From positions 2,392-66,391 of the forward strand of contig CAYVLZ010000002.1 in the NCBI GenBank assembly GCA_964452525.1: 64,000 nucleotides of DNA, in the 5' to 3' direction. The notes below the pieces were generated by a model. That model saw only the letters and a list, made by a program, of their open reading frames with translations, was not told where the DNA came from and did not search any database. Positions within the stretch are counted from its first letter, which is position 1; each line of letters opens with the position of its first letter. The DNA is from Candidatus Woesearchaeota archaeon (GTDB taxonomy: Archaea > Nanobdellota > Nanobdellia > SCGC-AAA011-G17 > CAYFGV01). Positions 8,505 through 63,926 of this stretch are shown here, piece by piece. The position numbers were made by a program, and so were the translations under genes.

Positions 8505-8529
8505 TTTAAAATATTTTTCCTTTGCTTAT

Positions 8530-8601: not shown

Positions 8602-8666
8602 TGAACACCTACTTTCTCGAGTGTTAGTGCTCTAAAGCATATAAATTAGTTGGAGGTACTAATAAT

Positions 8667-9905: not shown

Positions 9906-9955
9906 TAATTTCCGCTTTTAATAACTTTTAAATATTGTAAAATAAAAATTTTTTT

Positions 9956-10354: not shown

Positions 10355-10496
10355 ATAATCTGTATTTTTTAATCCTAATTTGAAGTATCAAAATAATATT
10401 AAATTTTCCAAAATAACCTAAGCTTTTATTGAAACAATAGTCATGATTATTATTGCTTACGCGTTTTTTTCTACAGTCCCTACCTAGCTTCATTTT

Positions 10497-11368: not shown

Positions 11369-11401
11369 TCAGGATTTATTTAAGGTTTCTTTGTTCTTTA
11401 C

Positions 11402-12067
11402 TCATTCTTTTATGAAATCTTCTCGTGTTTTTCCAGCCTTTTTTAATTCTCTGTCTATTATTCTATTAACACTATTTAACCATTTAACATTAAATGATCC
11501 TACTTTTTCCTTTTCAAGTCTTGAAACCATATCAAAAACATTTTCTACAAAAAACTTTTCTTCTAATTGCATATCTCTAATTGCTTCTTTAATCCGATCT
11601 TCCATTAAATATTGCATAAAAAACAAACCTTCAAATCTTGTAGTAATAGGCCTACCTTTTTTATCAAACCCCATTTCATTTAGAGATACCCCTGGAGTTT
11701 CTTCAAATTCAACTATTGCAGTCCCAGCTTTTTGATCCAATTGAGACCTAATCGGATGAGATTTTGGCGTCTTTAAACTGATTCCTAGTTCTCTACGGAG
11801 TTCCCTTTCAATCTTATAAATGAATGGACAATTAGAAAGGAATTCTTTTGAAGAATATTTTGGAAAAGATACTAAATTCTCATATACCCCATCACTTATT
11901 TTTTTAACTTTAATTTTAAAATCTAGTTGTGCAATCTTATTAAGTATTTGTTTAAGGAAAACCGATAACCATTTTGGTTTATCTTTAATCTTTTTTAAGA
12001 TAGGATTTTCGCTATCAAAATTATATTCAATTTTATACCATCCCTTTATCCAACGTTTATCTTTCAT
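11402..12067 (-). CDS. Hypothetical protein (element-borne)
   Basis: 221-aa ORF whose start overlaps the stop of the upstream AbrB-like ORF (ATGA). No family recognised. Confidence 0.55.
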   Translation of the reverse strand: MKDKRWIKGWYKIEYNFDSENPILKKIKDKPKWLSVFLKQILNKIAQLDFKIKVKKISDGVYENLVSFPKYSSKEFLSNCPFIYKIERELRRELGISLKTPKSHPIRSQLDQKAGTAIVEFEETPGVSLNEMGFDKKGRPITTRFEGLFFMQYLMEDRIKEAIRDMQLEEKFFVENVFDMVSRLEKEKVGSFNVKWLNSVNRIIDRELKKAGKTREDFIKE

Positions 12068-12204
12068 TTCTTCCTCAGCACCAGATTCCCCTTAGCATCT
12101 ATTTCAATATCAATCACATCTCCTTTCTTCCACTGCTTTGCATTAATTATCTGCAAAGGCATGTTCAAGAAGTATTGTCCATTCTTTTGCCTTTGAAGTT
12201 TCAT
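12064..12204 (-). CDS. AbrB/SpoVT-type (looped-hinge helix) DNA-binding protein, 46 aa, absent from ORF track
   Basis: Manual translation: MKLQRQKNGQYFLNMPLQIINAKQWKKGDVIDIEIDAKGNLVLRKK. It shows the typical AbrB/MazE pattern (..h.lP..h.....hk.GD.v.h.....g.lvL.k). ATGA overlaps occur at both ends (12201-12204 and 12064-12067). Confidence 0.6.
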   Translation of the reverse strand: MKLQRQKNGQYFLNMPLQIINAKQWKKGDVIDIEIDAKGNLVLRKK

Positions 12205-12626
12205 TTTCTTTTTGCTAAATCTCTTTTAATCACAAAACGAATTACCAATGTAAGTATTAAAAACCAAATCAAATATGAAAGACTATAACTAAAAAGTGCA
12301 ATCATTATTCCAATTATAATAACATTTATCAAGAACAGACTCTCCCATCCCTTTCTATATTTCTTCTCCTTTATTTTAATAACAAGATTTATGAATAAGA
12401 ACGGAAAGATTATCCAAAATACAATTCCTGTTATCCAAAGAGTAGGGTTGATAAAAAATAGGTGGCTCTCGGGTTCTGAACTTATAAGGAATTTAAGATA
12501 TCTCGATAAAGCATAGATTACTACAATACCATAGATTACTCCTACCTTACTCCCCCAATGTTTAAAACTAAAAAATTTACTTTCACCATCAAACCCAAAA
12601 GTTAAGAAATCAAAGACTTTCCCCAT
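12201..12626 (-). CDS. Multi-TM membrane protein (element-borne)
   Basis: ATG at 12626 (MGKVFDFL...). The track start at 12716 is a GTG that would read through the att repeat. Four or more hydrophobic segments. Confidence 0.5.
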   Translation of the reverse strand: MGKVFDFLTFGFDGESKFFSFKHWGSKVGVIYGIVVIYALSRYLKFLISSEPESHLFFINPTLWITGIVFWIIFPFLFINLVIKIKEKKYRKGWESLFLINVIIIGIMIALFSYSLSYLIWFLILTLVIRFVIKRDLAKRK

Positions 12627-12702
12627 AATAGTGGAGAGAATAGTAATATTTATATAGTTTAGGGTACTACTAATTATAGCACCAGAGAAAGTAAGAATTC
12701 TG

Positions 12703-12715
12703 CTCGGCTGGCGCA
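12703..12715 (+). repeat. attR candidate
   Basis: ctcggctggcgca, identical to the tRNA-Gly 3' end. The upstream gtaagaat resembles the T-loop gttcgaat. Confidence 0.65.
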
Positions 12716-49472: not shown

Positions 49473-50807
49473 ATGGATATTAAACTATGCGGTGTTGGCG
49501 GTTATAACGAAGTAGGAAAAAATATGACCGCCTTGAAGATAGGTGACGAAGTAGTAATTCTTGATATGGGTTTTTTTCTTCCAAAATTAATAAGTTTTGA
49601 AGAAGAAGGAGGACAAAGAAAAAACTTAACCCCAAAAGGATTAATGGAATTGGGAGCAATACCTAATGATTCTGTAATATCTTCCTGGAAAAACAAAGTA
49701 AAAGCTATTGCATTTAGCCATTGTCATCTTGACCATGTGGGTGCTTCACTATATCTAGCAAATAAATACAAAGCTCCATTACTAGGTACAAGATTTACTT
49801 TAGAAGTTCTAAAATCCATGGCAAAAGACGAAAAAATAAATCTAAAAAACGATTTAAACGTATTAAATGCAAACTCCAGCCACAAAGTAAGTAAAAATAT
49901 CAAAATAGAATTCATAAACATGACTCATTCTACTCCTCAGACAGTAATGATAGCCGTACACACTCCAGAAGGCGTTATTCTATATGCTAATGACTTCAAA
50001 TTTGACAATTATCCAGTACTAGGGAAGAAACCCAATTATGAGAAATTAAAAGCATTAAAAGGAAATGTAAAAGCCTTAATCGTAGACAGCTTATACGCAG
50101 ATGCTGAAAGAAAAACTCCAAGTGAGAAGGTAGCTAGAGAAATGTTAAAAGATGTAATGCTTGGAACAGACAACAAAGGACATGCTATTATAGTTACTTG
50201 TTTTGCTAGCCATCTTGCTAGATTAAAAAGCATAATAGACTTTGGAAAAGCTCTTAACAGAAAAATAGTATTTATGGGAAGAAGCATGGCTAAATATACT
50301 TTAGCAGCAGAAAAAGCAGAGCTTGTTAAATATTCAAAAGACGTTGAAATCTTAAGTTACTCAAGACAGATGGAGAAAAAACTTAAAAAAATAGAAAAAA
50401 ACCGAGACCAATATTTAATAGCATGTACAGGTAACCAAGGAGAACCTGGAAGCGTATTAACAAGACTAGCTTCTGGTCAATTACCATTTAAATTCTATCC
50501 AGAAGATCATGTTATCTTTTCATGTAAAACCATTCCGGTTGATATTAATATTGCTAATAGAGCTTTACTAGAAAGAAAACTAAAACAGAAAAAAACAAGA
50601 ATATTTACAGACATCCATGTTTCAGGTCATGCAGGAAGAGAAGATCTTAGAGATCTAGTAGATATGGTACAACCCAAACACATTTTTCCCGTACATGGAA
50701 ATCCAATGCAAGACCTTGCCATGGCAGAATTAGCAACTGAAATGGGATATAAAAAAGGTAAAAACGTTCATTTAATAAATGATGGTGACATATTAGATTT
50801 AAAATGA
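49473..50807 (+). CDS. rnj: Archaeal ribonuclease J (metallo-beta-lactamase / beta-CASP)
   Basis: GVGGYNEVGKNMTALKIGDEVVILDMGF, HCHLDHVGA (HxHxDH), beta-CASP motifs, HVSGHAGREDL. About 444 aa. Confidence 0.8.
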   Translation: MDIKLCGVGGYNEVGKNMTALKIGDEVVILDMGFFLPKLISFEEEGGQRKNLTPKGLMELGAIPNDSVISSWKNKVKAIAFSHCHLDHVGASLYLANKYKAPLLGTRFTLEVLKSMAKDEKINLKNDLNVLNANSSHKVSKNIKIEFINMTHSTPQTVMIAVHTPEGVILYANDFKFDNYPVLGKKPNYEKLKALKGNVKALIVDSLYADAERKTPSEKVAREMLKDVMLGTDNKGHAIIVTCFASHLARLKSIIDFGKALNRKIVFMGRSMAKYTLAAEKAELVKYSKDVEILSYSRQMEKKLKKIEKNRDQYLIACTGNQGEPGSVLTRLASGQLPFKFYPEDHVIFSCKTIPVDINIANRALLERKLKQKKTRIFTDIHVSGHAGREDLRDLVDMVQPKHIFPVHGNPMQDLAMAELATEMGYKKGKNVHLINDGDILDLK

Positions 50808-51265
50808 AAAAGAGGAAAAAGAAGGTCAATTATATGCCTTATGTACTCCCAATGATTACTTTTATTGCTATCGCTATATTTGCTATTGCTAATCCAAACA
50901 TTACTGGTTTGGCTGTCCAAGATCAAGTTCAAATCAGCTCTCAAATACAATTAAAAATGGATCCTGAAGTAGTAATGCCTCCTAGTGCTTTAGTTAAAGT
51001 AACCTTAGATGGTAAGTCTTCTTCAATGACTATTGAAGACTTCATTGAAAAAACAGGACAAGATTATAGCTATGAACAAGGAACTTTTCCACAGATAAAC
51101 TACAAAGGACAAGGTTATACTGGTGATTATACTTACACTTTAGATTTATCAGAATTTAATCTCGGATTAGTCCCAAGAAAGGATCAATATCTATTAGAAA
51201 TTGACATTATCTTTAATAACGAACTTCTTTCCCATAGTGAGGAGATCGTAACTGTAGAAGAATGA
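50804..51265 (+). CDS. Membrane-anchored hypothetical protein
   Basis: Basic N-terminus followed by a TM segment (VLPMITFIAIAIFAIA). ATGA overlap with rnj. Confidence 0.45.
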   Translation: MKKRKKKVNYMPYVLPMITFIAIAIFAIANPNITGLAVQDQVQISSQIQLKMDPEVVMPPSALVKVTLDGKSSSMTIEDFIEKTGQDYSYEQGTFPQINYKGQGYTGDYTYTLDLSEFNLGLVPRKDQYLLEIDIIFNNELLSHSEEIVTVEE

Positions 51266-51483
51266 GCGTTCCAGCCTACGGTAAAAAGAAGATAAAAGTA
51301 AATACTTACATTCACGAGAAAGGCAAAAGTCTCGCAAGGACTACTCATATTGATCTTGAAGGTGATATTTCTAAAATAATCAAACCAGGAGAAATAACTT
51401 TCATAAAAGGAAAAAAAGGTGGAGTTTTCATAGCTCTTAAAAAAGAGATGATAAAGAGAGCTGAGAGATTGATTAAGAAATAA
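51262..51483 (+). CDS. Small basic hypothetical protein
   Basis: 73 aa. 4-nt overlap with the upstream gene. No family recognised. Confidence 0.4.
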   Translation: MSVPAYGKKKIKVNTYIHEKGKSLARTTHIDLEGDISKIIKPGEITFIKGKKGGVFIALKKEMIKRAERLIKK

Positions 51484-51522
51484 CCCATCACATTTATAAA
51501 TACTAAGTTCTTCCCCCAAAAT

Positions 51523-52140
51523 ATGAAATACGTAATTCTAGATATAGAAACAGTGCCTTTTGAAATTAAGCATGAAGATGTCAAATTATATCTAATGGAT
51601 AAAAAGATAAGCAAAGAAAGAAGAAGTATGGATCCAAATTATGCTAAAATCATATCTATAGGTATTAAAATCTCAGATTCTGAAACTAAAATATTCTCTG
51701 GGGATAAGGAAAAACAAATATTAGAAGAATTCTGGACTTTCCTAAAAGAAAATATCCAAGATCATATTTTCATAACCCATAACGGCTATAAATTCGATAT
51801 TCCATTTTTATTGATAAGGTCTGTAATCAATAAAATACCAATCCCAATCTCAATTAATTTAAACAGATGGAGAATGGAAGATTCTAATCATTTTGATACA
51901 ATGTTGTTCTTTTCTCAGTATGAAGCCTTTACTAATCCCAATTTAGTAATTCTAGCGAAGATGCATGGTATCGACTCCATTGACACTGTAACAGGCTCAG
52001 ATATAGAAAGATTGTACAAAGAAAAAAACTGGGAAAGAATAAAAGAACACTGTAAACATGACATCAATACTTTAGAACAAATATTTACTAAATTCTGCTT
52101 AGATTATTTAAAATCAAGACAACAGAACAATAAAGCTTAA
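51523..52140 (+). CDS. RNase H-fold 3'-5' exonuclease (PolB-exonuclease-like, DEDD type)
   Basis: VILDIETVP (Exo I), ITHNGYKFDIPFL (Exo II), HCKHDINTLEQIF (Exo III). Confidence 0.7.
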   Translation: MKYVILDIETVPFEIKHEDVKLYLMDKKISKERRSMDPNYAKIISIGIKISDSETKIFSGDKEKQILEEFWTFLKENIQDHIFITHNGYKFDIPFLLIRSVINKIPIPISINLNRWRMEDSNHFDTMLFFSQYEAFTNPNLVILAKMHGIDSIDTVTGSDIERLYKEKNWERIKEHCKHDINTLEQIFTKFCLDYLKSRQQNNKA

Positions 52141-52164
52141 TAGCAACTTTATCTTCCCAAAAAT

Positions 52165-53361
52165 ATGAAATTCGCTCATCTAGCAGATTGCCATTTGGGA
52201 GGTTGGAGAGAACCTCAACTTAGAGATCTCGGATTAAAAGCTTTTGATAAAGCAATGGATATTTGTATAGAAGAAAATACAGCCTTTGTCCTTATAGCTG
52301 GAGATCTATTCAATAATGCACTTCCACCAATAGACCTATTAAAAGAAGTAACCAACAGCTTAAGAAAACTAAAAGACAATGACATAAGCTGTTACATAAT
52401 CCCAGGAAGTCATGATTTCTCTATAAGCGGTAAAACCATGCTAGATGTCTTGGAAAAAGCTGGCTTAGTAGAAAATGTTGCTAAACTAGAAGATAATAAA
52501 TTAAAATTCACAATAGATAAAACCAACACAAAAATAACAGGTTTATTTGGCCTTAAAGGTGGCTTAGATAAAAACTACTATGAAAATATAGATAAAGAAA
52601 GTCTAGAAAAAGAAACCGGATTCAAAATCTTCATGTTCCACACTACTTTAACAGAATTCAAACCAAAAGATATGGAAAATGTAAAAAGTGAAAGTGTAAA
52701 CATAATACCAAAAAACTTCAACTACTATGCTGGTGGCCATCCGCATTATGTTTTCCATAAAGATTATCCCGGCTACGGAATGATAAGCTTTCCAGGTCCA
52801 TTATTCCCAAATAATTTCTCAGAACTAGAAAAACTTCAGCATGGAAGCTTCTACATAATAACCGCAAATGAAAAGCTTGACATTAAACAAATTCCATTAA
52901 AATTCCATGATGTTATTTCTTTTAATATAGATGTAAATAATAAAACAGCTACAGAAGCAGAAAAAATAATCTTAGACAACTTAAATCAGGATGTTACAAA
53001 CAAAATAGTAACTTTAAGAATTCATGGAACATTAACAAGTGGAAAAATAAACGACATCAACTTCAATGAAATTCTTTCTAAATTAGAATCTGCTTATGTA
53101 GTATTAAAAAATACTAATGCCTTAACAACAAAAGAATTTGAAGCAATAAAAATGGGGGGTAATGTAGAAGATATAGAAAAAGCCCTAATTAAAGAGCATA
53201 TAAAAGACACCAACATAAAAGAAGAACCAATTTTAAATTTAATGGAATCCTTAAGCTCATCTAAAGAAGAAGGAGAAACGACTTCAGATTTTGAAAACAG
53301 ATTGCTAAAAGACACCCTAAAATCTCTTAATTTAGAAGAAACATGGAAAAATGCTGCTTAA
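52165..53361 (+). CDS. mre11: DNA double-strand-break repair nuclease Mre11
   Basis: MKFAHLADCHLGGW, IAGDLFN, IPGSHD, MFHT, GGHPH phosphoesterase motifs. Confidence 0.85.
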   Translation: MKFAHLADCHLGGWREPQLRDLGLKAFDKAMDICIEENTAFVLIAGDLFNNALPPIDLLKEVTNSLRKLKDNDISCYIIPGSHDFSISGKTMLDVLEKAGLVENVAKLEDNKLKFTIDKTNTKITGLFGLKGGLDKNYYENIDKESLEKETGFKIFMFHTTLTEFKPKDMENVKSESVNIIPKNFNYYAGGHPHYVFHKDYPGYGMISFPGPLFPNNFSELEKLQHGSFYIITANEKLDIKQIPLKFHDVISFNIDVNNKTATEAEKIILDNLNQDVTNKIVTLRIHGTLTSGKINDINFNEILSKLESAYVVLKNTNALTTKEFEAIKMGGNVEDIEKALIKEHIKDTNIKEEPILNLMESLSSSKEEGETTSDFENRLLKDTLKSLNLEETWKNAA

Positions 53362-55402
53362 AAAGGTAAAACTACAAAATATCAGAAGCTATAAAAATCA
53401 AGAAATAAGCTTTCCAGAAGGATCCATACTACTAAGTGGAGATATAGGCTCAGGTAAAAGTACAATCTTATTAGCAATAGACTTCGCTTTATTTGGCTTA
53501 AGAAGAGGAATATTGTCAGGTTCTTCTTTACTAAGAAACGGCACAGACAGAGGCGGTGTAGAATTACATTTCAATATTTCCAATAAAGACGTTGTAATAA
53601 AGAGAACTCTAAAAAGAGAAAAAAGTGTAACTCAAGATTCTGGTTTTGTGATGATTAATGAGAATAAAAAGGAAGGTACCGCAACAGAAATCAAACAGCT
53701 AGCTCTTAATTTATTAAATTATCCTAAAGATCTACTAACTAAAAATAAAGATTTAATCTACTCCTACACTGTCTACACCCCGCAAGAAGAAATGAAACAC
53801 ATACTATTAACAGATAAAGAAACTAGATTAGACATCCTAAGAAAAATCTTTGGAATAGATAAATACAAAAGAATCAATGATAATTCCAAAATATTCTTAA
53901 CAAAAGTAAGAGAAAAGAAAAAAGAATTCTCAGGAATGATCTCAGACTTAGAAAATAAGAAACAAGAAAAACAAGAAAAGCAATCAAAAATAGAAGATCT
54001 AAACAAAAAACTACTTTCCTTAAAAGAAAGCCTAGAAAATCTAGATAAGAAAATCTCAGATAAAACTTCGTTATTTGAAAGAACAGAATCAGAAATATCT
54101 AAACTAAATGAGTTAAAAAAACAGTTAGAATTAACTACTCTAGATTTAAAACATAAGAAAGATTCTTTACAAAGAAACCAGCCAGAGATGGAAAATCTAA
54201 GATCTTCTATAAACATATTAAAAGAAGAAGTTAAAGATGTCCCTGAAGAGAATATCAAAGAAGAGATCTCAAATAAAGAATCTAAATTAAGAGAAGCTGA
54301 AAAAGAGCTTGAGGAAATAACAAAAAAAGTCCAGGAATATGAAATTATTAAAAACCAATCAGAAGATCTAAAAGACAAAATATCCAAACTAGATATCTGT
54401 CCGGTATGTAAACAAACAGTAACTCAAGAACACAAACATTCTATTAACTATGAAGAAGATAAAAAACTACAAGAAATATCCAAAAACTCAATGCTATCAA
54501 AACAAAAACAATTAAAATCCGGAGAAGAAGTCACTAAATTAAGAGAAAAACTGGATTCTCTAAGAAAACAAGAACAACAGATTTCTCTATTCAAGATTAA
54601 ACAAGAAAACCTAAAAGAAAAAACAGAAAAATTAGATTCTTTATTAAAACAACAAGCAACACTCGGAGAGGAAATAGAAGACTTAGATTCCAAAAAAACC
54701 GAAATATCAAGTAACTTAGACAAATATAAGGATACAGAATCCATACACAACACTATAAAAGAAGAACTCGAAAATCTACAAAAACAGAAAAAAGATCTAG
54801 AAATAGAAGCAGCAACATTCAACAGAGAATTAAAAGATACTAAAGACTTCCTAGAAACAATAGATAAAGAAATTCAAAAAAAATTAGACATAAAAAATAA
54901 AATAGAAAAGCTAGATTCAACTCAAAACTTGATTCAAGAAATTTTTAACAATTTAATGACAAACATGGAAAAACAGATTATGCTTAAAGTCCACAGTGAT
55001 TTTGATTCTCTATTTCAAAAATGGTTCGGGATTTTGGTGGAAACTGAAGCATTAAAGATAAGATTAGATCACGATTTCACCCCCCTAATAGAGCAGAATG
55101 GTTATGATATCGATTATCTGCATTTGAGCGGCGGAGAGAAAACAGCAGCAGCTCTTGCTTATAGACTAGCCCTAAATCAAGTAATTAATAACTTAATGAG
55201 TACAATAGAGACTAAAGATTTATTGATATTAGATGAGCCCACAGATGGTTTCTCAGACGAGCAAATAGACAGAATCAAATTAGTTCTAGACGAATTAAAG
55301 ATTCAGCAGGTAGTCATAGTTAGTCATGAAAGTAAGATAGAAAGCTTCGTAGACAGCATAATCAAAATAAATAAAAACAACCATATCAGTGCAGTATCAT
55401 GA
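53351..55402 (+). CDS. rad50: DNA double-strand-break repair ATPase Rad50 (short coiled coil, 683 aa)
   Basis: Walker A GDIGSGKST. Long K/E coiled coil. Zinc hook CPVC (54398..54409). Signature LSGGEKTAAALAYRLAL. Walker B LLILDEPT. VIVSHE. Confidence 0.9.
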   Translation: MLLKKVKLQNIRSYKNQEISFPEGSILLSGDIGSGKSTILLAIDFALFGLRRGILSGSSLLRNGTDRGGVELHFNISNKDVVIKRTLKREKSVTQDSGFVMINENKKEGTATEIKQLALNLLNYPKDLLTKNKDLIYSYTVYTPQEEMKHILLTDKETRLDILRKIFGIDKYKRINDNSKIFLTKVREKKKEFSGMISDLENKKQEKQEKQSKIEDLNKKLLSLKESLENLDKKISDKTSLFERTESEISKLNELKKQLELTTLDLKHKKDSLQRNQPEMENLRSSINILKEEVKDVPEENIKEEISNKESKLREAEKELEEITKKVQEYEIIKNQSEDLKDKISKLDICPVCKQTVTQEHKHSINYEEDKKLQEISKNSMLSKQKQLKSGEEVTKLREKLDSLRKQEQQISLFKIKQENLKEKTEKLDSLLKQQATLGEEIEDLDSKKTEISSNLDKYKDTESIHNTIKEELENLQKQKKDLEIEAATFNRELKDTKDFLETIDKEIQKKLDIKNKIEKLDSTQNLIQEIFNNLMTNMEKQIMLKVHSDFDSLFQKWFGILVETEALKIRLDHDFTPLIEQNGYDIDYLHLSGGEKTAAALAYRLALNQVINNLMSTIETKDLLILDEPTDGFSDEQIDRIKLVLDELKIQQVVIVSHESKIESFVDSIIKINKNNHISAVS

Positions 55403-55944
55403 CAAAACATATAAAGTTCAAAAACCTCAGAAAAACAATAACTAAAAAAATTAAATCCGGTTCTATATTCATTTACCCTACAGACACAATTTATGGCTTA
55501 GGTTGTAATGCTTTAAACTCAGAAAGTGTCTCTAAGATAAGAGCAATTAAAAGAACTACTAAACCTTTTAGTGTAATAGCTCCAAGTAAACAATGGATAT
55601 ACAGAAATTTTAAAGTAAAGAATAAAAATTATATTAGGAAATTACCAGGTTCTTTTACTTTTGTTCTTGAATCTAAAAAGAGAAATATTGTAAGCAAAGA
55701 AACAAACCTAAATCTTAAGACTCTAGGAATAAGAATCCCAAAACACGATTTTACTAAGTTCATCAAAGTACCTTTCATTACTACTTCCGTAAATCTCACA
55801 GGAAACAAACCAATTATAAGTGTTAAAAAAGTTCCTAAAAAAATTCTTAAAGAAGTAGATATTGTAATTGATGATGGAATCTTAGACAACAAACCTTCTA
55901 CAGTAATAGATCTAACAGAAAAAATACCAAAGATTCTCAGATAG
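55399..55944 (+). CDS. tsaC: L-threonylcarbamoyladenylate synthase, YrdC-domain only
   Basis: IFIYPTDTIYGLGCNA, KRTTKPFSVI, TTSVNLTG. Confidence 0.8.
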   Translation: MTKHIKFKNLRKTITKKIKSGSIFIYPTDTIYGLGCNALNSESVSKIRAIKRTTKPFSVIAPSKQWIYRNFKVKNKNYIRKLPGSFTFVLESKKRNIVSKETNLNLKTLGIRIPKHDFTKFIKVPFITTSVNLTGNKPIISVKKVPKKILKEVDIVIDDGILDNKPSTVIDLTEKIPKILR

Positions 55945-56016
55945 GGGTTATAGGGTAACTTGGTATCCTTCAGCCATGGGGTGGCTGCGATCTGGGTTCA
56001 AATCCCAGTAACCCCC
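55944..56016 (+). tRNA. tRNA-Pro (GGG), no intron
   Basis: Acceptor ggggtta/taacccc, anticodon arm cagcc-atGGGgt-ggctg with G37, T arm ctggg-ttcaaat-cccag. Two nt lie between the D and anticodon stems. The first base overlaps the tsaC stop codon. Confidence 0.75.
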
Positions 56017-56371: not shown

Positions 56372-56379
56372 TTTAAATA
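56372..56379 (+). promoter_or_regulatory. TATA box (aaaTTTAAATA) for tRNA-Tyr
   Basis: Lies 31 nt upstream of the tRNA 5' end at 56403. Confidence 0.5.
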
Positions 56380-56402
56380 TGAATAATTATCACATTAGTT
56401 AA

Positions 56403-56553
56403 CCCACCATAGCTCAAATCAATCTTCCGAAACGGAGGTGAGAGCAGCGGCAGAGTGTTCGGCTGTAGATACTATTCGACAAAGCAAATTGCTATGGATG
56501 AAAAATAGTCAGCTGATCCCGAAAGGTTCCCGGTTCAAATCCGGGTGGTGGGA
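56403..56553 (+). tRNA. tRNA-Tyr (GUA) with two introns (about 29 nt in the D-loop; 49 nt at or next to the canonical anticodon-loop site)
   Basis: Acceptor cccacca/tggtggg with the C1-G72 pair typical of archaeal tRNA-Tyr. D stem gctc(56412-15)/gagt(56453-56). Anticodon stem ttcgg(56458-62)/ccgaa(56519-23). Loop ctGTAga. T arm cccgg-ttcaaat-ccggg. Total 151 nt, 73 nt after removing 78 nt. Confidence 0.75.
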
Positions 56554-56939
56554 TTCTTTTCTTCAATGGTACAACCAATATCTTCTCTACTTAGCTTATC
56601 AATGAACCCTCTACAAATTCTAGCAAGATCTGAGATAGAATCACCTACCACCTCCTCAATCAGATCTTCGCCTTTAGAAGTCAAGAACATATATATTTCA
56701 TGAGGCAAATTTAAAACAACTCCAGACCCAGATTCAGAAATATAACCTATATCAAATTTCTTATTTCCTGCAATAGCCTGTATACAAAAATATCCATTTT
56801 CTATACTATCCGGACGATAATCAAGATGTTCTTCGTCATAAACAATCCTATGAATTCTATCAAGATTAGTAACCTCGGTTATGTAAGATTCAATAACCCT
56901 ATCAAATCCGGCAAGAAGTTCATCAACATCCATCTTCAT
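56535..56939 (-). CDS. Hypothetical protein
   Basis: ATG at 56939 or 56933 with a palindromic TATA box (56958..56965) upstream. Its 3' end overlaps the tRNA-Tyr 3' end by 19 nt on the opposite strand. No family recognised. Confidence 0.45.
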   Translation of the reverse strand: MKMDVDELLAGFDRVIESYITEVTNLDRIHRIVYDEEHLDYRPDSIENGYFCIQAIAGNKKFDIGYISESGSGVVLNLPHEIYMFLTSKGEDLIEEVVGDSISDLARICRGFIDKLSREDIGCTIEEKNPTTRI

Positions 56940-56985
56940 ACAAACAGATACCAAAAATTTATAAAGTTTTCATATAAAACAAATG

Positions 56986-56993
56986 TTTATAAA
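56986..56993 (+). promoter_or_regulatory. TATA box (aatgTTTATAAA) for tRNA-Asp
   Basis: Lies 31 nt upstream of the tRNA 5' end at 57017. Confidence 0.5.
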
Positions 56994-57016
56994 TTGAAAT
57001 AAATTTTAATTCACAT

Positions 57017-57134
57017 GCCCCAGTAGTGTAGTGGTTATATTAGATTGCTTAAAAGCGTCTGAGATCAACATTCGGCCCTGTCGTATTTTCAATGCAGCAA
57101 GGCCGCGACCCGAGTTCAACTCTCGGCTGGGGCG
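57017..57134 (+). tRNA. tRNA-Asp (GUC) with two introns (about 29 nt at the D-loop/D-stem junction, approx 57039..57067; 16 nt at canonical 37/38, 57084..57099)
   Basis: Acceptor gccccag/ctggggc, discriminator g. D stem gtgt(57026-29)/acat(57068-71). Anticodon stem cggcc(57073-77)/ggccg(57101-05). Loop ctGTCg...a. 4-nt variable loop cgac. T arm ccgag-ttcaact-ctcgg. Total 118 nt, about 73 nt mature. Confidence 0.75.
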
Positions 57135-57165
57135 TATTACCTTTCTGTACATTAAACGCATAACC

Positions 57166-57173
57166 TTTAAATA
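57166..57173 (+). promoter_or_regulatory. TATA box (aaccTTTAAATA) for 57199 CDS
   Basis: Lies 33 nt upstream of the GTG at 57199. Confidence 0.4.
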
Positions 57174-57198
57174 GTTCTATTCCAAGAAGATTAAGAAA

Positions 57199-57486
57199 GT
57201 GAACGATCTTTTAACATTAATATTACTTGTAATCTTAAATTTGATAAATTATGTTACAATGTTTTATTATATTAAGGATAACAAACCAAGATTATATAAG
57301 GAGATCTTTAATGAAATTAAAACTCCCTTTGGTCTACAAAGATTACAACGCACCCATGTTAAAAGAGCTGCATGGTGTTTTATAAATTGGTTTTTAACAA
57401 TCCATAAAGAAGATGATTTAAGAACAGTAGTACAAAAATATCTATATGTAATCCTTTTAGTCGCAAGTTTAATTTTAATATTCTAA
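57199..57486 (+). CDS. Hypothetical two-TM membrane protein (GTG start)
   Basis: 95 aa with hydrophobic N- and C-terminal segments. A TATA box lies at the leaderless spacing. Confidence 0.4.
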   Translation: MNDLLTLILLVILNLINYVTMFYYIKDNKPRLYKEIFNEIKTPFGLQRLQRTHVKRAAWCFINWFLTIHKEDDLRTVVQKYLYVILLVASLILIF

Positions 57487-57624
57487 TATTCTATAAAAAC
57501 ATAATAGAGTCTTAAAACAAAAGCTTTATATATAACTTGTCTTGGTAGTAAAAACATGCGTCTCTGGGTATCATCTATTAAATTTTTATAATACTAAGAG
57601 ATAGCTCTATAATGTTCCAAAAAT

Positions 57625-57783
57625 GGGCCGATAGCTCAGCTTGGTAGAGCACTTGAAATTCAAGTAATAAGTCATAAATGATATTGTAAGAACAATGTTC
57701 TTATTGGTGAAGCTTTTAACCAAGTGGTCGCGGGTTCAAAATGTTTAAGGAAGCTCCTTGACTTGATATTCCCGTTCGGCCCA
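57625..57783 (+). tRNA. tRNA-Lys (UUU) with two non-canonical introns (56 nt in the anticodon stem at 30/31, 57656..57711; 29 nt in the T-loop at about 59/60, 57741..57769)
   Basis: Acceptor gggccga/tcggccc. D arm gctc-agcttggta-gagc. Anticodon stem cttg+g / ccaag. Loop ctTTTaa. T stem gcggg/cccgt. T loop ttcaaa+t. Total 159 nt, exactly 74 nt after removing 85 nt. Confidence 0.75.
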
Positions 57784-57797
57784 TTCAATCAAAGAAA

Positions 57798-58040
57798 ATG
57801 GCAGAAGAATTTGATATTTTAAAACACAGTCTCGTCCCAAAACACATAAAATTGAGTGAAGAGGAAAAGAAAAAATTTCTTGAAGAACTTAACATAAATT
57901 TAACACAATTACCAAAAATACGAAAAAAAGATCCAGCTATAAAAAACCTAGAGTCAAAAACTGGGGACGTAATTAAAATAATTAGAAATAGTCCAACAAA
58001 TGTAGAGAGTATATTCTACAGGGTAGTCGTACATGGTTAA
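57798..58040 (+). CDS. rpoH: DNA-directed RNA polymerase subunit H (Rpb5)
   Basis: HSLVPKHIKLSEEEKKKFLEELNI...LPKI...DPAIK...GDVIKIIRNSPT...IFYRVV. Confidence 0.9.
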   Translation: MAEEFDILKHSLVPKHIKLSEEEKKKFLEELNINLTQLPKIRKKDPAIKNLESKTGDVIKIIRNSPTNVESIFYRVVVHG

Positions 58041-59523
58041 AAGTTATAAAGAATTAATAGGAAATTATTTTGAAGAGCATTCTTTCGTAGAGTCCAATAT
58101 AAGAAGTTTCAACAACTTTATAGAAAAAGGAATGCAAAAAATAGTTAATGAAACTGGAGACATTATTCCAACAGTCATACCCCAGGAAGTAGAGAACTTC
58201 AAAATAAAGATGGGCAAGGTTAAAATAGACAAGCCCCAAATCGTAGAAGCAGATGGAAGTAAAAGAGATATTTACCCGATAGAAGCTAGATTAAGGCAAT
58301 TAACTTATTCTTCTCCAATACACCTAGAATTCTCAACCTACATAGACAATGTTCACAGAGAAAACTTCATCACCCCCGTAGGCAAGTTACCTATAATGGT
58401 TAAAAGTAAGTACTGTCATTTGCATGGATTGAAGAAAGATGCTTTAATCTCCCGTGGAGAAGATCCAGAAGACCACGGAGGTTATTTTGTTCTTAATGGA
58501 AATGAAAGAGCACTTGTTATAATAGAAGACTTAGCTTCTAATAAATTATTCATAGAAAAAAATGCTACAGGTCCAAGCAAATATAGTGCAAAGGTATTCT
58601 CTGAAAGAGGTAGTTATAGAATCCCACATTTATTAGAACAAATGCGTGACGGAATTATTTACGCTAGTTTTACAAGATTCAGAAGAGTTCCTATAATCCC
58701 GATAATAAAAGCTCTTGGAATAGTAAAAGATCAAGATATTATGAATTTCATTAACCCAGATAAACAATATGATGATGTATTTGTAAATCTATACAATTTT
58801 GTAGATATAAAAACAGAAAAAGATGCTCTTGAATTCTTATCAAGAAAAATTGGAATCACACAGCCAAAAGACCAAAAATTACAAAGGACAAGAGAACAAC
58901 TAGATCGTTATTTATTACCCCATCTTGGAGTAGAGCCAAAAGATAGAGTACTAAAAGCTTATAATTTATGTAAGATAATTAAAAGATTCTTAATGGTAAC
59001 GAGAGACGGACTTACACAAATGCCAAAAGATCACTACATGAACAAAAGACTCAAACTTAGCGGAGATTTATTAGAAGATTTATTCAGAATAACTTTAAGA
59101 AGTCTTGTACAGGATATGCTTTACAACTTCCAAAGATTAGTTAAAAGAGGAAAATTCCAATCTATTAAGATCATTATAAGAGATCAACTAGTTACATCAA
59201 AAATTAAAAGTGCAATGGCAACGGGGACCTGGATAGGGGGAAGAAAAGGTATAAGCCAAAACTTACAAAGAACTAACTCTTTAGATACAACATCCCATTT
59301 ACAAAGGGTAGTTAGTTTATTAACCTCCACACAAGAAAACTTTGAAGCCAGAGCTTTACATCCAACAATGTGGGGGAAACTATGTCCTATAGAAACTCCA
59401 GAGGGTACTCCAATAGGGCTTAGAAAAAATCTTGCTTTACTCTGTAATATTACTCAGACTGAGCCTTCAGAAGACAAGGTAAAAAAAGTATTAGAAAGCA
59501 ATGGGTTAAAGATAATGGACTAA
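58033..59523 (+). CDS. rpoB2: DNA-directed RNA polymerase subunit B'' (N-terminal half of split B)
   Basis: Rpb2 N-terminal motifs: ARLRQLTYSSPI, GGYFVLNGNERALV, HPTMWGKLCPIETPEGTPIGLRKNLA. Confidence 0.95.
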   Translation: MVKSYKELIGNYFEEHSFVESNIRSFNNFIEKGMQKIVNETGDIIPTVIPQEVENFKIKMGKVKIDKPQIVEADGSKRDIYPIEARLRQLTYSSPIHLEFSTYIDNVHRENFITPVGKLPIMVKSKYCHLHGLKKDALISRGEDPEDHGGYFVLNGNERALVIIEDLASNKLFIEKNATGPSKYSAKVFSERGSYRIPHLLEQMRDGIIYASFTRFRRVPIIPIIKALGIVKDQDIMNFINPDKQYDDVFVNLYNFVDIKTEKDALEFLSRKIGITQPKDQKLQRTREQLDRYLLPHLGVEPKDRVLKAYNLCKIIKRFLMVTRDGLTQMPKDHYMNKRLKLSGDLLEDLFRITLRSLVQDMLYNFQRLVKRGKFQSIKIIIRDQLVTSKIKSAMATGTWIGGRKGISQNLQRTNSLDTTSHLQRVVSLLTSTQENFEARALHPTMWGKLCPIETPEGTPIGLRKNLALLCNITQTEPSEDKVKKVLESNGLKIMD

Positions 59524-59524
59524 A

Positions 59525-61327
59525 ATGGGGGATGTTTATTTAAATGAAAAATTCATTGGAACTGTAGAAGATGCAAAGAAATTTGTAGATAAGCTTAGAT
59601 CTGAGAGAAGAAAAGGAGACGTTACCCCTTTAATTAATGTCTTCTACGACGAAGAATTTAATGAAATCTATTTAGAGTCTACAAAAGGAAGAGCCAGAAG
59701 ACCCTTAATAATTGTAGAGGACGGAAAAAGTAAATTAACAGAAGATATCCAGGAAAGATTAAAGAAGAAAGAACTAACATGGGAAGACCTATCTAAACAA
59801 GGAATAATAGAATATCTAGATTCTTCTGAAGAAGAAAATGCTTTAGTTGCTTTAAATGAAGAAGATATCACCAAAGAACATACACATTTAGAAATAAGTC
59901 CAGTTCTAATTCTCGGTTTATGTACTAGCTTAATACCTTACAGTAATCATGGTAGCAGCTCAAGGTTAATTAGAGGTAGTAAAATCCAGAAGCAAGCTCT
60001 AGGATTGTATGCAGCTAATTTCTTAACGAGAATAGATACAGAATCAAGTATATTACATTATCCTCATAAACCAATTGTTAATACGTTTATGCACGATGTC
60101 TATGGTTACGATAAAAATCCTTCTGGACAAAACGTTGTCATTGCTTTGTTAAGTTATGAAGGTTATAACATGCAGGACGCAATTGTAATTAATAAAGCCA
60201 GTGTAGAAAGGGGCTTTGGAAGAAGTACTTTCTTCCGTCCTTATGTTGCAGAGGAATTGAGATACAGCGGAGGATTAATGGATGAAATTTCAGTACCTGC
60301 AAAAGATGTTAAAGGTTATAAGTCTGAAAGAGATTATAGACACCTAGAAAAAGATGGAATAGTCTACTCAGAAGCGAAAGTATCCACTGATGATGTTTTA
60401 ATAGGAAAAACAAGTCCTCCTCGTTTTCTAGGAGACTTGGAAGAGATGAGTATTGCAGCAAATGTTAGAAGAGAGTCTTCAACAATAGTAAAGCACGGAG
60501 AAGAAGGTATCGTTGACACGACTTTTGTAACTGAAAATGAAGAGGGAAACAAATTAGTTCAAGTAAGATTAAGAACTCCAAGAATACCTGAAATAGGCGA
60601 TAAATTTGCTTCTAGACATGGACAGAAGGGAGTCATTGGGTTAATAGTCCCTCAAGAAAATATGCCTTTTTCTGTCTCCGGAATTGTTCCGGATTTAATA
60701 TTCTCTCCACACGGTATCCCAAGTAGAATGACGATTTCTCATCTAATTGAAATCATAGCTGGGAAAGTTGGATGCCTATCCGGAAAAAATATAGACGGCA
60801 CTACATTTGATTCAGTTCCAGAGCAAGAAATAAGAAAACAACTAACTGAACTAGGATTCAGAGAAGATGGAACAGAAACATTATACAACGGGATAACTGG
60901 AGAAAAATTCAAAGCCAGAATATTCATAGGAAATATGTTTTATTTAAAACTAAAACACATGGTAGCAAATAAATTACATGCTAGAGCCAGTGGTAGAATT
61001 CAATTATTAACAAGACAACCAATAGAAGGAAGAGCAAAAGGCGGTGGCCTAAGATTAGGAGAGATGGAAAAAGATTGTCTAGTAGCTCATGGTACAAGTA
61101 TGTTATTGAAGGAAAGGTTTGATTCAGATAAAACTGTCGTTCACGTCTGTGAAAGCTGTGGATTGATAACAGGATATGATTATTTCAAAAATAAACCTAC
61201 TTGTTTAAGATGCGGATCTAGTGCAGAAATATCCGGAATAGAAATAAGTTACGCTTTTAAATTATTATTAGACGAGGTAAAAAGCCTGGGAATATATCCC
61301 AAATTATTATTAAAAGGTAAATACTAA
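59525..61327 (+). CDS. rpoB1: DNA-directed RNA polymerase subunit B' (C-terminal half of split B)
   Basis: GYNMQDAIVINKASVERGF, GDKFASRHGQKGV, PDLIFSPHGIPSRMT, GGLRLGEMEKDCLVAHG, C-terminal zinc ribbon CESCG...CLRCG. Confidence 0.95.
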   Translation: MGDVYLNEKFIGTVEDAKKFVDKLRSERRKGDVTPLINVFYDEEFNEIYLESTKGRARRPLIIVEDGKSKLTEDIQERLKKKELTWEDLSKQGIIEYLDSSEEENALVALNEEDITKEHTHLEISPVLILGLCTSLIPYSNHGSSSRLIRGSKIQKQALGLYAANFLTRIDTESSILHYPHKPIVNTFMHDVYGYDKNPSGQNVVIALLSYEGYNMQDAIVINKASVERGFGRSTFFRPYVAEELRYSGGLMDEISVPAKDVKGYKSERDYRHLEKDGIVYSEAKVSTDDVLIGKTSPPRFLGDLEEMSIAANVRRESSTIVKHGEEGIVDTTFVTENEEGNKLVQVRLRTPRIPEIGDKFASRHGQKGVIGLIVPQENMPFSVSGIVPDLIFSPHGIPSRMTISHLIEIIAGKVGCLSGKNIDGTTFDSVPEQEIRKQLTELGFREDGTETLYNGITGEKFKARIFIGNMFYLKLKHMVANKLHARASGRIQLLTRQPIEGRAKGGGLRLGEMEKDCLVAHGTSMLLKERFDSDKTVVHVCESCGLITGYDYFKNKPTCLRCGSSAEISGIEISYAFKLLLDEVKSLGIYPKLLLKGKY

Positions 61328-61328
61328 A

Positions 61329-63926
61329 ATGGAAGATTTTGTATCAAAAAAGATAGACTCAATCATTTTCGGAGTTTTATCCCCAAAGATGATTAAGAAA
61401 ATGGCTTCTGCAAAAATAGTAACTTACGAACTATATGATAAAGAAGGCTATCCTGTAGACGGAGGCTTAATGGACGTAAGATTGGGAGTCATAGATCCAG
61501 GACTAAGATGTAAAACATGTGGCGGAAAACTAAAGAAATGCATAGGCCACTTTGGTTACATAGAATTAGCACGTCCTGTTGTTCATGTTAAATACGTAAA
61601 AGTAGTCCAAGATTTCTTAAGAAGCACCTGTAAAGAATGCGGAAGAGTTTTAGCAACAGATGAAAAAGTATCAGAATATTTAAAAGCCCTAGAGAAGATA
61701 GAAAAGCAATTCGGAGCAGAAGCAAAAAGAAAGAAAGTAAGAGAATTCATTAACCAGCTTAAGACAATTAAAAAATGTCCACATTGCAAATCTAAACAAG
61801 GGAACATAAAGATCGAAAAACCAACAACAATTCTAGAAGATGATAGAAGGATTAATCCTATAGAAATAAGAACAAGGCTTGAGAAGATAAGCGATTCAGA
61901 CGTAATGATCCTTGGCTTAAATCCAGAGTACGCGAGACCCGAATGGATGGTTATAACTCTATTAGCCATTCCTCCAGTAACAATGCGCCCAAGTATAACT
62001 CTAGATACAGGAGAAAGAAGTGAAGACGATTTAACGCATAAACTTGGAGACATAGTAAGAATAAACCAAAGATTATTTGAAAATATAAATGCCGGAGCAC
62101 CAGAAGTAATTATAGAAGACTTATGGGATCTACTTCATTACCATGTTACAACATTTTTTGACAACAACATGGCCTCAGTACCCCCAAGTCGACATAGAAG
62201 CGGGCAACCATTAAAAACATTAACAGAAAGAATAAAAAGTAAAGAAGGACGTTTCAGATACAACTTAGCTGGAAAAAGAGTTAACTACAGTGGAAGAACT
62301 GTAATAAGTCCGGATTCTAAAATTAAATTCAATGAAGTGGGTGTTCCAGAGGTAGTAGCAATGGAACTTACAATTCCAGAAGTAGTCACAGAATGGAACA
62401 TCGATTGGCTAAAAGATTTTATTAAAAGAGGACCAAAAAAGTATCCAGGTGCTAATTATGTAGTAAGACCGGATGGAAAAAAGAAATCCATAACAGACGA
62501 AACAAGAGAGCAATTACTAGAAGAATTACAACCCGGTTATATCGTTGAAAGACATCTTATGGAAGGTGACATATCAATCTTCAATAGACAACCAAGCCTG
62601 CACAGGATGAGCGTAATGTGCCATAGAATAAAAGTTCTTCCAGGAAAAAGCTTTAGATTAAATCCAGCTACATGTACTCCATATAACGCAGATTTTGACG
62701 GAGATGAAATGAATTTACACATTCCTCAGACAGAAGAAGCAAGAGCTGAAGCAGAACTATTAATGGGGGTAGAAAGTCATATCATAAGTCCTAAAAATGG
62801 TTCAAATATAATTGGCTGTATTCATGATTCTATAGCAGGAAATTATCTTTTAACTAAAGAATTAAGCTTCCCCAAAGAAGATGCCATTGAAATTCTTACA
62901 TCTATTGGTGTTGAAGATAATTCTAAATTTAAAAAATTCGATAAAACTGTATCAGGTAAACAAATTTTTAGTGCATTACTTCCAGAAAACTTAGACTTCA
63001 TTGGTTATAGCAGAATCTATAAAGAAGACCACAACCATCCAGAAGCTGTTGTTAAGATAATTAAAGGAGAATTGATAAAAGGAGTTATAGACAAAGCCAC
63101 AATAGGGGAGGAAGATGGAACTTTAATAAGAACCATATATGCAAACTACAACCAAAGAGAAGCTATAGATATCTTGAGTAAGATGTTTAGATTAGGTATA
63201 GAAGTTCTATTAAGAATCGGTTTCACTACTGGAATTAGCGATACAGATCTTCCTAATAAAGTAAAAGAACAATACGACATAATATTACAAGAAGCAAGAG
63301 CTAAAGTAGATAAATTAATTAAGAAATACCATGATAAGAGATTAGAAGCCCTTCCTTCTTTATCTATTGAAGAAACTTTAGAAATAAAAATACTAGAGGT
63401 ATTAAGTAAGGTTAGAAATAAAATCGGAGAGGTAATTGCAAAAATATCAAAGGAAGATAACCCAACAATAATTATGGCAAAATCTGGCTCGCAAGGTAGT
63501 ACATTAAACCTAGCACAAATGGCTGCTTGCGTCGGACAGCAATCTCTAACAGGAAAGAGGATAGAGACCGGTTATAAAAACAGAACATTATCTATATTCA
63601 AGAAGAAAAGTCTTGGACCCGAACAAAAAGGTTTCATTAAAAACGGATTTAAAAGTGGATTAAATCCTTTTGAATATTTCTATGGTGCAATAACTGGTAG
63701 AGATTCTCTTATGGATACTGCATTGAGAACACCAAAATCCGGTTATTTATACAGAAGGTTAGCAAACGCATTACAAGATATAAGGATAGAGTATGACAAC
63801 ACTGTAAGGGATGCAACAAGAACAATAGTTCAATTTAAATATGGAGAAGATGGTATAGACGTCTCAAAAAGTGAAGGTGGAACTATAAACGTTAAAAAGT
63901 TCGTAGACTTAGTTAAAGAAAAATGA
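61329..63926 (+). CDS. rpoA1: DNA-directed RNA polymerase subunit A'
   Basis: Zn motifs CKTCGG..C.GHFGYIEL. NRQPSLHRMSVMCHRIKVLPG. Catalytic NADFDGDEMNLH. Confidence 0.95.
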   Translation: MEDFVSKKIDSIIFGVLSPKMIKKMASAKIVTYELYDKEGYPVDGGLMDVRLGVIDPGLRCKTCGGKLKKCIGHFGYIELARPVVHVKYVKVVQDFLRSTCKECGRVLATDEKVSEYLKALEKIEKQFGAEAKRKKVREFINQLKTIKKCPHCKSKQGNIKIEKPTTILEDDRRINPIEIRTRLEKISDSDVMILGLNPEYARPEWMVITLLAIPPVTMRPSITLDTGERSEDDLTHKLGDIVRINQRLFENINAGAPEVIIEDLWDLLHYHVTTFFDNNMASVPPSRHRSGQPLKTLTERIKSKEGRFRYNLAGKRVNYSGRTVISPDSKIKFNEVGVPEVVAMELTIPEVVTEWNIDWLKDFIKRGPKKYPGANYVVRPDGKKKSITDETREQLLEELQPGYIVERHLMEGDISIFNRQPSLHRMSVMCHRIKVLPGKSFRLNPATCTPYNADFDGDEMNLHIPQTEEARAEAELLMGVESHIISPKNGSNIIGCIHDSIAGNYLLTKELSFPKEDAIEILTSIGVEDNSKFKKFDKTVSGKQIFSALLPENLDFIGYSRIYKEDHNHPEAVVKIIKGELIKGVIDKATIGEEDGTLIRTIYANYNQREAIDILSKMFRLGIEVLLRIGFTTGISDTDLPNKVKEQYDIILQEARAKVDKLIKKYHDKRLEALPSLSIEETLEIKILEVLSKVRNKIGEVIAKISKEDNPTIIMAKSGSQGSTLNLAQMAACVGQQSLTGKRIETGYKNRTLSIFKKKSLGPEQKGFIKNGFKSGLNPFEYFYGAITGRDSLMDTALRTPKSGYLYRRLANALQDIRIEYDNTVRDATRTIVQFKYGEDGIDVSKSEGGTINVKKFVDLVKEK

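Follow-up and report, generated by a model that had tools for sequence, protein, structure and literature searches.

Positions 56403–57783 of the window analysed here, a 64-kb stretch of DNA from a woesearchaeotal archaeon of a microbial-mat metagenome (GC content 32.7%), raise the question of whether three interrupted tRNA genes can lie where standard detectors find none. The first-pass annotation, made by manual folding, had proposed genes for tRNA-Tyr, tRNA-Asp, and tRNA-Lys at this locus, each with two introns. The proposal was borne out by ARAGORN on the spliced products and by orthologous genes, and so were the positions given for the introns (D-arm, anticodon stem, 37/38, and T-loop). 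As judged from the sequence, the locus very probably encodes functional tRNA-Tyr(GUA), tRNA-Asp(GUC), and tRNA-Lys(UUU) of a woesearchaeotal member of the DPANN archaea, each gene carrying two protein-spliced introns of the bulge–helix–bulge (BHB) type. What is said below of this organism refers to the window, the part of its genome that was examined.

With default settings, ARAGORN called tRNA-Gly and tRNA-Pro as the only tRNA genes of the window, and nothing at 56403–57783. Rfam at the gathering threshold found Gly alone in the window and again nothing at this locus. When the filters were relaxed, the Rfam tRNA model matched 57017–57134 with 39.3 bits (gathering score 29) and with insertions of 32 and 19 nt, which fall in the D-loop and the anticodon loop. 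When the proposed introns were excised, ARAGORN returned perfect cloverleaves for Tyr-GTA, Asp-GTC, and Lys-TTT, with the original as well as with the corrected boundaries described below. The GC content was 57–64% for the exons of the three genes and 27–39% for the introns. Each of the three genes has two introns, at least one of them away from 37/38, and thus they belong to the multiple/non-canonical class. The possibility of split or permuted tRNA genes was rejected, as the exons are collinear on one strand within 118–159 nt.

Other modes of detection gave wrong names. At the Asp locus (57016–57135), the intron mode of ARAGORN wrongly reported tRNA-Leu(TAA) interrupted by a single 35-nt intron, and a lowered threshold produced a false Ile at the Tyr locus. 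In a relative, default ARAGORN named a Lys gene with a 14-nt intron (L021, 5570–5658) 'Leu'. Brute-force enumeration of double excisions gave 0.3–0.9 million candidates per gene and was replaced by targeted splicing and a splice-aware aligner. Hidden tRNAs were also sought in the other GC-rich islands of the window, but these islands lie within protein-coding genes.

To place the exon boundaries, we turned to orthologous loci (numbered L002 and onwards). These were fetched via RpoB'', whose relatives are metagenome-assembled genomes (MAGs) of Woesearchaeota or 'Nanoarchaeia' with 48–70% identity; tRNA-Asp and tRNA-Lys often lie just upstream of rpoH in them. The aligner was global in the template and local in the genome, with a fixed cost for an intron jump. 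True matches scored at least 91 and noise 63–79, and boundaries in the relatives are uncertain by 1–3 nt where the sequence permits sliding. The aligner yielded 20 Asp and 26 Lys genes, that is, 46 with the two of the window and 44 orthologues, each with 0–4 introns at sites that recur across the set. ARAGORN named the right tRNA for all but one of the 46 spliced products. Uninterrupted copies exist (L010, L015, and L023, for example). Since the spliced products of the window align collinearly with the intron-less orthologues, the boundaries are fixed. The concentration of introns in this cluster, pointed out in the first-pass annotation, is not peculiar to this genome, since the orthologous Asp and Lys genes carry between none and four introns throughout the clade.

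A further question is whether the locus is an artefact or a chimera of metagenomic reads. The assembly is metagenomic and of low depth (~5x), which would favour such an origin. However, 56380–57800 is identical (0 differences) in independent Logan DNA contigs of two samples, and many MAGs assembled independently show these gene structures too. As two independent DNA samples gave the identical sequence, the locus was taken to be real; an artefact is hardly credible.

The junctions were then assayed for BHB geometry, a check that the first-pass annotation had named. The scan covered every pair of cuts in a gene and was blind to the proposed sites. The strict motif, hBHBh' (a central helix H with two bulges, between an outer exon helix h and an inner helix h'), was present at 20 of the 59 aligner-predicted introns (34%), and in 0.5% of 2,092 shifted controls. 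When any BHB-like form was counted, the figures were 45 introns (76%) and 17% of the controls. Three of the six junctions in the window are strict (Asp 22/23, Asp 37/38, and Lys 30/31), and three are relaxed. RNAalifold, applied to the spliced products of interrupted genes only, recovered three stems (acceptor, anticodon, and T) for both tRNAs, and the D stem for Asp only. In these interrupted genes, compensatory changes were seen at 8 of 21 pairs for Lys (17 sequences) and at 11 of 24 pairs for Asp (11 sequences).

It may be asked whether the three loci are decaying tRNA pseudogenes, disabled by insertions, with intact copies elsewhere in the genome doing the work. The silence of the standard detectors would fit this, and further copies are possible beyond the 64 kb in view. 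Yet all stems are intact after excision, and the interrupted orthologues preserve their stems by compensatory changes. The insertion sites are recurrent, their BHB geometry is far above chance, and most relatives have the interrupted gene as their syntenic copy upstream of rpoH. Moreover, DPANN genomes are small and usually hold one gene per isoacceptor. Pseudogenes are, on these grounds, very improbable.

For tRNA-Tyr, the 151-nt gene and the 49-nt intron at 37/38 stood as first annotated, but the D-loop intron is 30 nt and not 29, and the mature tRNA 72 nt and not 73. The identity elements C1–G72/A73 are present, the C1–G72 pair as first annotated. Two Tyr orthologues, L030 and L031, were found by an exact 25-nt pattern; the acceptor stem and the T-arm are common to them and the window. 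Their D-arm reads GCTC-AACGG(T/C)A-GAGC, and MAFFT opened a 30-nt gap in them opposite the Tyr gene of the window. Hence the length of 30 nt for intron 1 and of 72 nt for the mature tRNA. The 29-nt versions of the D-arm introns in Tyr and Asp gave cloverleaves acceptable to ARAGORN, yet were rejected by the orthologues and the BHB geometry. Since both L030 and L031 lack the D-loop intron, the 15/16 intron is a gain specific to the window lineage. Its junction is of the HBh' form (H = 4, h = 0, h' = 3), with a GCUC/GAGC helix and bulges AA↓A and AG↓C (arrows mark the exon–intron boundaries), followed by UCA/UGA and a hairpin. The outer exon helix is missing, and the unconstrained minimum-free-energy (MFE) fold showed the same helices.

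At Tyr 37/38, the anticodon stem (5 bp) acts as outer helix, with bulges AG↓A and AU↓C. The central helix consists of C-G, U.U, G-C, and U.G, that is, with one U.U mismatch; it is perfect in L031 and has U.C at the same place in L030. L030 and L031 carry homologous introns at this site, of 57 and 59 nt, respectively (sequence z = 7.9 and 4.0). Covariation is seen in the inner helix (CTATT/AATAG, TTGTT/AACAA, CTGTT/AACAG), and likewise in the anticodon stem of the three genomes (TTCGG/CCGAA, CACGG/CCGTG, TACGG/CCGTA). All three genomes also conserve another perfect helix, GCUG/CAGC, but it was set aside, as it would leave an anticodon loop of 8 nt.

For tRNA-Asp, the gene length of 118 nt and the 16-nt intron at 37/38 were retained, together with G73 and the 4-nt variable loop, while the D-arm intron was corrected from 29 to 30 nt and placed at 22/23, giving a mature tRNA of 72 nt. 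The D-arms of the Asp orthologues follow GTGT...TCAY with a conserved U13.U22 mismatch, and the spliced D-arm of the window agrees. These D-arms and the strict BHB require that the intron be 30 nt and follow U22. The 22/23 junction is hBHBh' with H = GGUU/GAUC, bulges AU↓A and AA↓C, h = 3 bp, and h' = 6 bp. The 37/38 junction is a textbook case of hBHBh' (h = 5, H = 4, h' = 3), and L007, L016, and L017 also have an intron at this site. In the unbiased scan of this gene, the two best motifs were the two introns, 22/23 at the top (H4/h3/h'6) and 37/38 after it (H4/h5/h'3). It may be noted that the two 30-nt D-arm introns, in Tyr and Asp, have no significant similarity, and transposition between them was rejected.

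For tRNA-Lys, every length first annotated was confirmed: 159 nt reducing to 74 nt, with 56 nt at 30/31 and 29 nt at 59/60. The 30/31 junction is strict hBHBh', with H = CACU/GGUG and bulges UG↓A and AA↓G; its outer helix (4 bp) is formed between the 3' strand of the D-stem and the anticodon loop. The unbiased scan ranked this 56-nt intron second in the gene (H4/h4/h'3). The 3' end of the intron, GRTGAA, is common to L002, L004, L005, L006, L009, L011, L016, L017, and L018. The intron at this site measures 14 nt in L004, 28 nt in L018, 128 nt in L016, and 134 nt in L017, and occurs after a slide of 1 nt in L002, L005, L006, L009, and L011. The central helix covaries with the exon, the third pair changing from C-G to U-A.

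At Lys 59/60, the T-stem (5 bp) serves as the outer helix. The bulges read AA↓A and AU↓U, and the central helix is made of the mismatch U54.U followed by U55-A, C56-G, and A57-U. The intron holds an AAGGA/UCCUU hairpin. In relatives, this junction is strict BHB in L002, L014, L020, and L022 and hBH in L005, L006, and L017, and A57-U is replaced by G57-C in L020. The introns measure 55 nt (L002), 29 nt (L005 and L006), 63 nt (L014), 44 nt (L016), 45 nt (L017), 15 nt (L020), and 27 nt (L022). In L003, L007, L008, and L012, the aligner reported site '57', which on reading by eye is 59/60 slid over an AAA repeat. Of the six introns, four (Lys 30/31, Lys 59/60, Asp 37/38, and Tyr 37/38) are old and clade-wide. 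The coordinates of all these features are collected in Table 1.

Table 1. The three interrupted tRNA genes and neighbouring features, by position in the window
Feature	Position	Strand	Remarks
TATA-like box TTTAAATA	56372..56379	+	centre 27 nt upstream of tRNA-Tyr
tRNA-Tyr(GTA) gene	56403..56553	+	151 nt, two introns, mature 72 nt
Tyr exon 1	56403..56417	+	positions 1-15
Tyr intron 1	56418..56447	+	30 nt, 15/16 in D-loop
Tyr exon 2	56448..56468	+	positions 16-37
Tyr intron 2	56469..56517	+	49 nt, canonical 37/38
Tyr exon 3	56518..56553	+	positions 38-73, no encoded CCA
TATA-like box TTTATAAA	56986..56993	+	centre 27 nt upstream of tRNA-Asp
tRNA-Asp(GTC) gene	57017..57134	+	118 nt, two introns, mature 72 nt
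Asp exon 1	57017..57038	+	positions 1-22
Asp intron 1	57039..57068	+	30 nt, 22/23
Asp exon 2	57069..57083	+	positions 23-37
Asp intron 2	57084..57099	+	16 nt, canonical 37/38
Asp exon 3	57100..57134	+	positions 38-73
tRNA-Lys(TTT) gene	57625..57783	+	159 nt, two introns, mature 74 nt; ends 14 nt before rpoH
Lys exon 1	57625..57655	+	positions 1-30
Lys intron 1	57656..57711	+	56 nt, 30/31 in anticodon stem
Lys exon 2	57712..57740	+	positions 31-59
Lys intron 2	57741..57769	+	29 nt, 59/60 in T-loop
Lys exon 3	57770..57783	+	positions 60-73
rpoH	57798-58040		Pfam Rpb5_C
rpoB, split	58033-59523 and 59525-61327		archaeal RNA polymerase operon, downstream of tRNA cluster
rpoA'	61329-63926		archaeal RNA polymerase operon
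tRNA-Gly(GCC)	8529-8602		intron-less; default ARAGORN
Tyrosine integrase	8667-9905		PF00589; 3' of tRNA-Gly, then five open reading frames without convincing Pfam family
tRNA-Pro	55944-56016		default ARAGORN

A pathway for these genes can be proposed. The first step would be transcription, probably with a separate TATA box for each gene. The candidate boxes of Tyr and Asp have their centres at −27 and that of Lys at about −37; TTTAWAWA has a background frequency of 0.83/kb per strand in the window, and these TATA-like boxes may serve as promoters. In the precursor, each pair of junctions would fold into a bulge–helix–bulge or its relaxed form, with a segment of the mature tRNA as one strand. 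The strands so borrowed would be the 5' strand of the D-stem for Tyr 15/16, the D-loop GGUU for Asp 22/23, positions 25–28 and the anticodon loop for Lys 30/31, positions 32–35 for the 37/38 introns, and the T-stem with T-loop positions 54–57 for Lys 59/60, as indicated by complementarity and by covariation at the shared sites. The splicing endonuclease, EndA, which in this clade is a single α-type subunit, would cut both 3-nt bulges. As in established archaeal splicing, an RtcB-type ligase would then join the exons into tRNAs of 72, 72, and 74 nt, the CCA being added later.

The insertions might instead be removed by another RNase or by self-splicing. That three of the six junctions depart from the strict motif leaves room for this, and archaeal group I introns do exist, DPANN-related lineages included (PMC6125680). 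However, at 16–56 nt the insertions are far too short for group I or group II ribozymes, and no Rfam intron family matched them. The enrichment of BHB forms and the covariation of the central helices indicate recognition by EndA, and the relatives encode an EndA with the catalytic Tyr, His, and Lys intact. Removal by other means is accordingly given very little weight. C/D-box sRNAs inside the introns were considered as well and rejected, the box-like strings being unconserved between orthologues.

RNA-level data came from a close relative of L002, in which 5397–5554 is spanned without a break by contigs of two RNA-type runs, a sediment 'metagenomic RNA-Seq' and a soil metatranscriptome (the X5 contig being adapter-flanked on both sides). 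These contigs comprise the 3' end of Asp, a 7-nt spacer, and the 5' half of Lys with introns 1 and 2. This suggests that Asp and Lys are co-transcribed as an unspliced precursor, although DNA carry-over is possible. The same contigs could be taken to mean that the insertions survive into the mature RNA, where they would form expansion segments of an unusual tRNA or tRNA-like molecule. Against this, insertions in the D-stem, the anticodon stem and loop, and the T-loop would wreck the L-shape, the presentation of the anticodon, and the contacts between T-loop and D-loop. Furthermore, the insertions vary freely in length (12–134 nt at one site) and in sequence while the exons are conserved, and some orthologues have no insertion at all. 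Retention is thus still less probable than removal by another route.

Several points weigh against splicing by EndA at BHB-type junctions. Half of the junctions (Tyr 15/16, Tyr 37/38, and Lys 59/60) are not strict. According to the classical rule, an α4 enzyme should not cut such relaxed junctions. Unconstrained MFE folding gave the BHB exactly for Tyr intron 1 only, and approximately for Asp. At Lys 59/60, there is a competing perfect register, UCAA/UUGA (listed as HBh' at shift +1/−1 in the motif survey), which would take 27 nt out and leave a 9-nt T-loop; it was rejected, as the relatives use the T54–A57 register. Neither EndA nor the ligase of this organism was found, there being none in the 64-kb window. 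The RNA contigs of the L002 relative contain the introns, which is expected of a precursor and silent on splicing. No RNA run matched the window, and none matched L017. As no RNA run carries the window sequence, excision in this genome is inferred.

Which type of EndA would be at work? The first-pass annotation had held that a heterotetrameric or ε2 enzyme is required, and had proposed that the type be identified. A sequence of M. jannaschii EndA, validated against PDB 1a79 (E = 8e-111), was used as probe. The matches in the protein database were single-unit proteins of 170–211 aa with PF02778 and PF01974, described as Nanoarchaeota/Woesearchaeota tRNA-intron lyase. They are collinear with M. 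jannaschii EndA, and the catalytic Tyr, His, and Lys are conserved. An alignment of these proteins was used to scan the MAGs, and EndA genes were present in five that also hold orthologous tRNA loci: L068 (in the MAG of tRNA locus L002, with three introns in Asp and four in Lys), L057 (L009), L067 (L003), L088 (L004 and L031), and L044 (L025, with an intact Lys gene). All five are single α-type units of 188–227 aa without internal insertion relative to M. jannaschii EndA. Because they are single units, ε2 and fused α'2 enzymes are excluded for these five genes; a separate β subunit was not searched for. The check on the type of EndA was thus answered for the relatives, the window itself holding no such gene, and the supposed requirement was not supported, as the EndAs of the relatives are collinear with an α4 enzyme. 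An open reading frame (ORF) at 57175–57483 was considered as EndA and rejected, the match being weak (E = 0.018, 8.8 bits) and Pfam support nil.

DPANN EndA of this kind has been described as α4 with an 'L3' loop and tied to a marked rise in tRNA disruption (Kaneta et al. 2018, PMC5829648). The L3 loop was not visible as an insertion in woesearchaeal EndA relative to M. jannaschii EndA. The woesearchaeal proteins have a Lys-rich N-terminal tail of ~20–35 aa that is not in M. jannaschii EndA; the tail is present regardless of tRNA fragmentation in the MAG. It is conceivable, though doubtful, that a plain single-subunit α-type EndA cuts relaxed BHB (HBh', mismatched helix) at the D-arm and T-loop in Woesearchaeota, without the crenarchaeal or ARMAN loops and with the Lys-rich tail as its only distinctive feature, and so supports up to four introns per gene. 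If this were true, the rule that α4 enzymes cut only strict canonical BHB would be broken, and the basic tail, or an unrecognised partner, would be a new route to broad specificity.

Comparison with known systems places the locus. Like the multiple-intron tRNA genes of Thermoproteales, with introns at non-canonical positions (Sugahara et al. 2008; reviewed in PMC4033280), these genes hold several short BHB-type introns each, in the D-arm, anticodon stem, T-loop, and at 37/38, and their intron content turns over rapidly between relatives. Unlike Thermoproteales, the host belongs to DPANN/Woesearchaeota and is mesophilic, with 33% GC. In contrast to the intron transposition of that group, no trace was seen here of sequence-similar introns spreading from gene to gene, and the EndA of the relatives is a single α-type unit and not an (αβ)2 enzyme with a crenarchaeal loop. 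When the first-pass annotation ascribed such introns chiefly to Thermoproteales and some further archaea, it left out DPANN, for which a rise in tRNA disruption had already been reported, with a Woesearchaeota genome among those covered (Kaneta et al. 2018, PMC5829648). The resemblance is closest there: the same superphylum, an α4-type EndA, and many non-canonical or multiple introns. That study noted that undetected disrupted tRNAs were still to be found by manual curation, and the present locus is an example. Its data are genome-level counts, whereas here specific genes, junctions, site conservation, and covariation are described. Like ARMAN-2 (Micrarchaeum; PMC3239211, PMC3488258), the host lineage is an ultrasmall DPANN archaeon with non-canonical introns that need cleavage of broad specificity, but the ε2 EndA of ARMAN-2 has three units and ~395 aa (PDB 4fz2), compared with the single units found in the relatives. 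Within the locus, Asp intron 2 is like the canonical archaeal hBHBh' introns at 37/38, and Tyr intron 2 has the same register with one mismatch; the other four, at 15/16, 22/23, 30/31, and 59/60, are unlike them.

The locus therefore adds one more case to a phenomenon known from earlier work on DPANN archaea, and the current picture of archaeal tRNA splicing is unchanged. Beyond the literature found are the conservation of these introns, site by site, across Woesearchaeota, the relaxed motifs in a lineage with plain α-type EndA only, and a tRNA-Lys with four introns in L002. Default finders miss or mis-call such genes, and DPANN genomes therefore seem to lack essential tRNAs unless curated by hand. 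With 0–4 introns at conserved sites, the orthologues of the syntenic Asp–Lys pair upstream of rpoH form a natural series suited to a study of gain and loss. The same series allows one to test how an apparently simple α-type endonuclease handles relaxed motifs.

Some observations on the tRNA genes of relatives may be added. The four-intron gene is tRNA-Lys(TTT) at 5442–5651 of L002 (MAG MEGAHIT-group-0.155), with BHB-type introns in the D-loop (35 nt), at 30/31 (34 nt), 37/38 (12 nt), and 59/60 (55 nt); tRNA-Asp of the same locus (5263–5434) has three. A review of 2014 gave three per gene as the maximum for archaeal tRNA introns. The Lys 30/31 introns of L016 (2567–2694) and L017 (5512–5645), at 128–134 nt, are far above the others in length, and that of L016 has an AUGAUGA (box-C-like) string that is not kept in L017. 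In run X2, a contig that matches 57624–57656 of the window and comes from another organism of the same mat has the 3' end of tRNA-Asp followed by tRNA-Lys. After the Lys 5' exon there, a short insertion at 30/31 ends in GGTGAA, with synteny and site as in the window. The distance between Asp and Lys is 490 nt in the window, and from a few to ~250 nt, mostly below 20, in the relatives.

As first annotated, the cluster lies just upstream of the RNA polymerase genes (Table 1). A 95-aa ORF between the Asp and Lys genes (57199–57486, +) looks hydrophobic and has no Pfam match. An acidic ORF on the opposite strand (56535–56954, −; 134 aa from the first ATG) overlaps the 3' end of tRNA-Tyr, and its only match among 5.8 billion proteins was to itself. 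Upstream of the cluster, 49473–55944 holds genes for an RNase J-like beta-CASP nuclease and for PolB-exonuclease-like, Mre11-like, and Rad50-like proteins, together with a Sua5/YrdC (t6A pathway) gene whose stop codon abuts tRNA-Pro. Further away, a DDE transposase gene (PF01609, 38701–39540) is surrounded by genes whose large products, of a secreted or surface type, contain Laminin_G_3, F5/8 type C, and fn3 domains. Finally, the 13-nt string CTCGGCTGGCGCA at the 3' end of tRNA-Gly (8589–8601) has an exact second copy at 12703–12715, so that 8529–12715 looks like an element of ~4.1 kb integrated at this tRNA gene. Anecdotally, the tRNA gene that carries the element is the nearby intron-less one.

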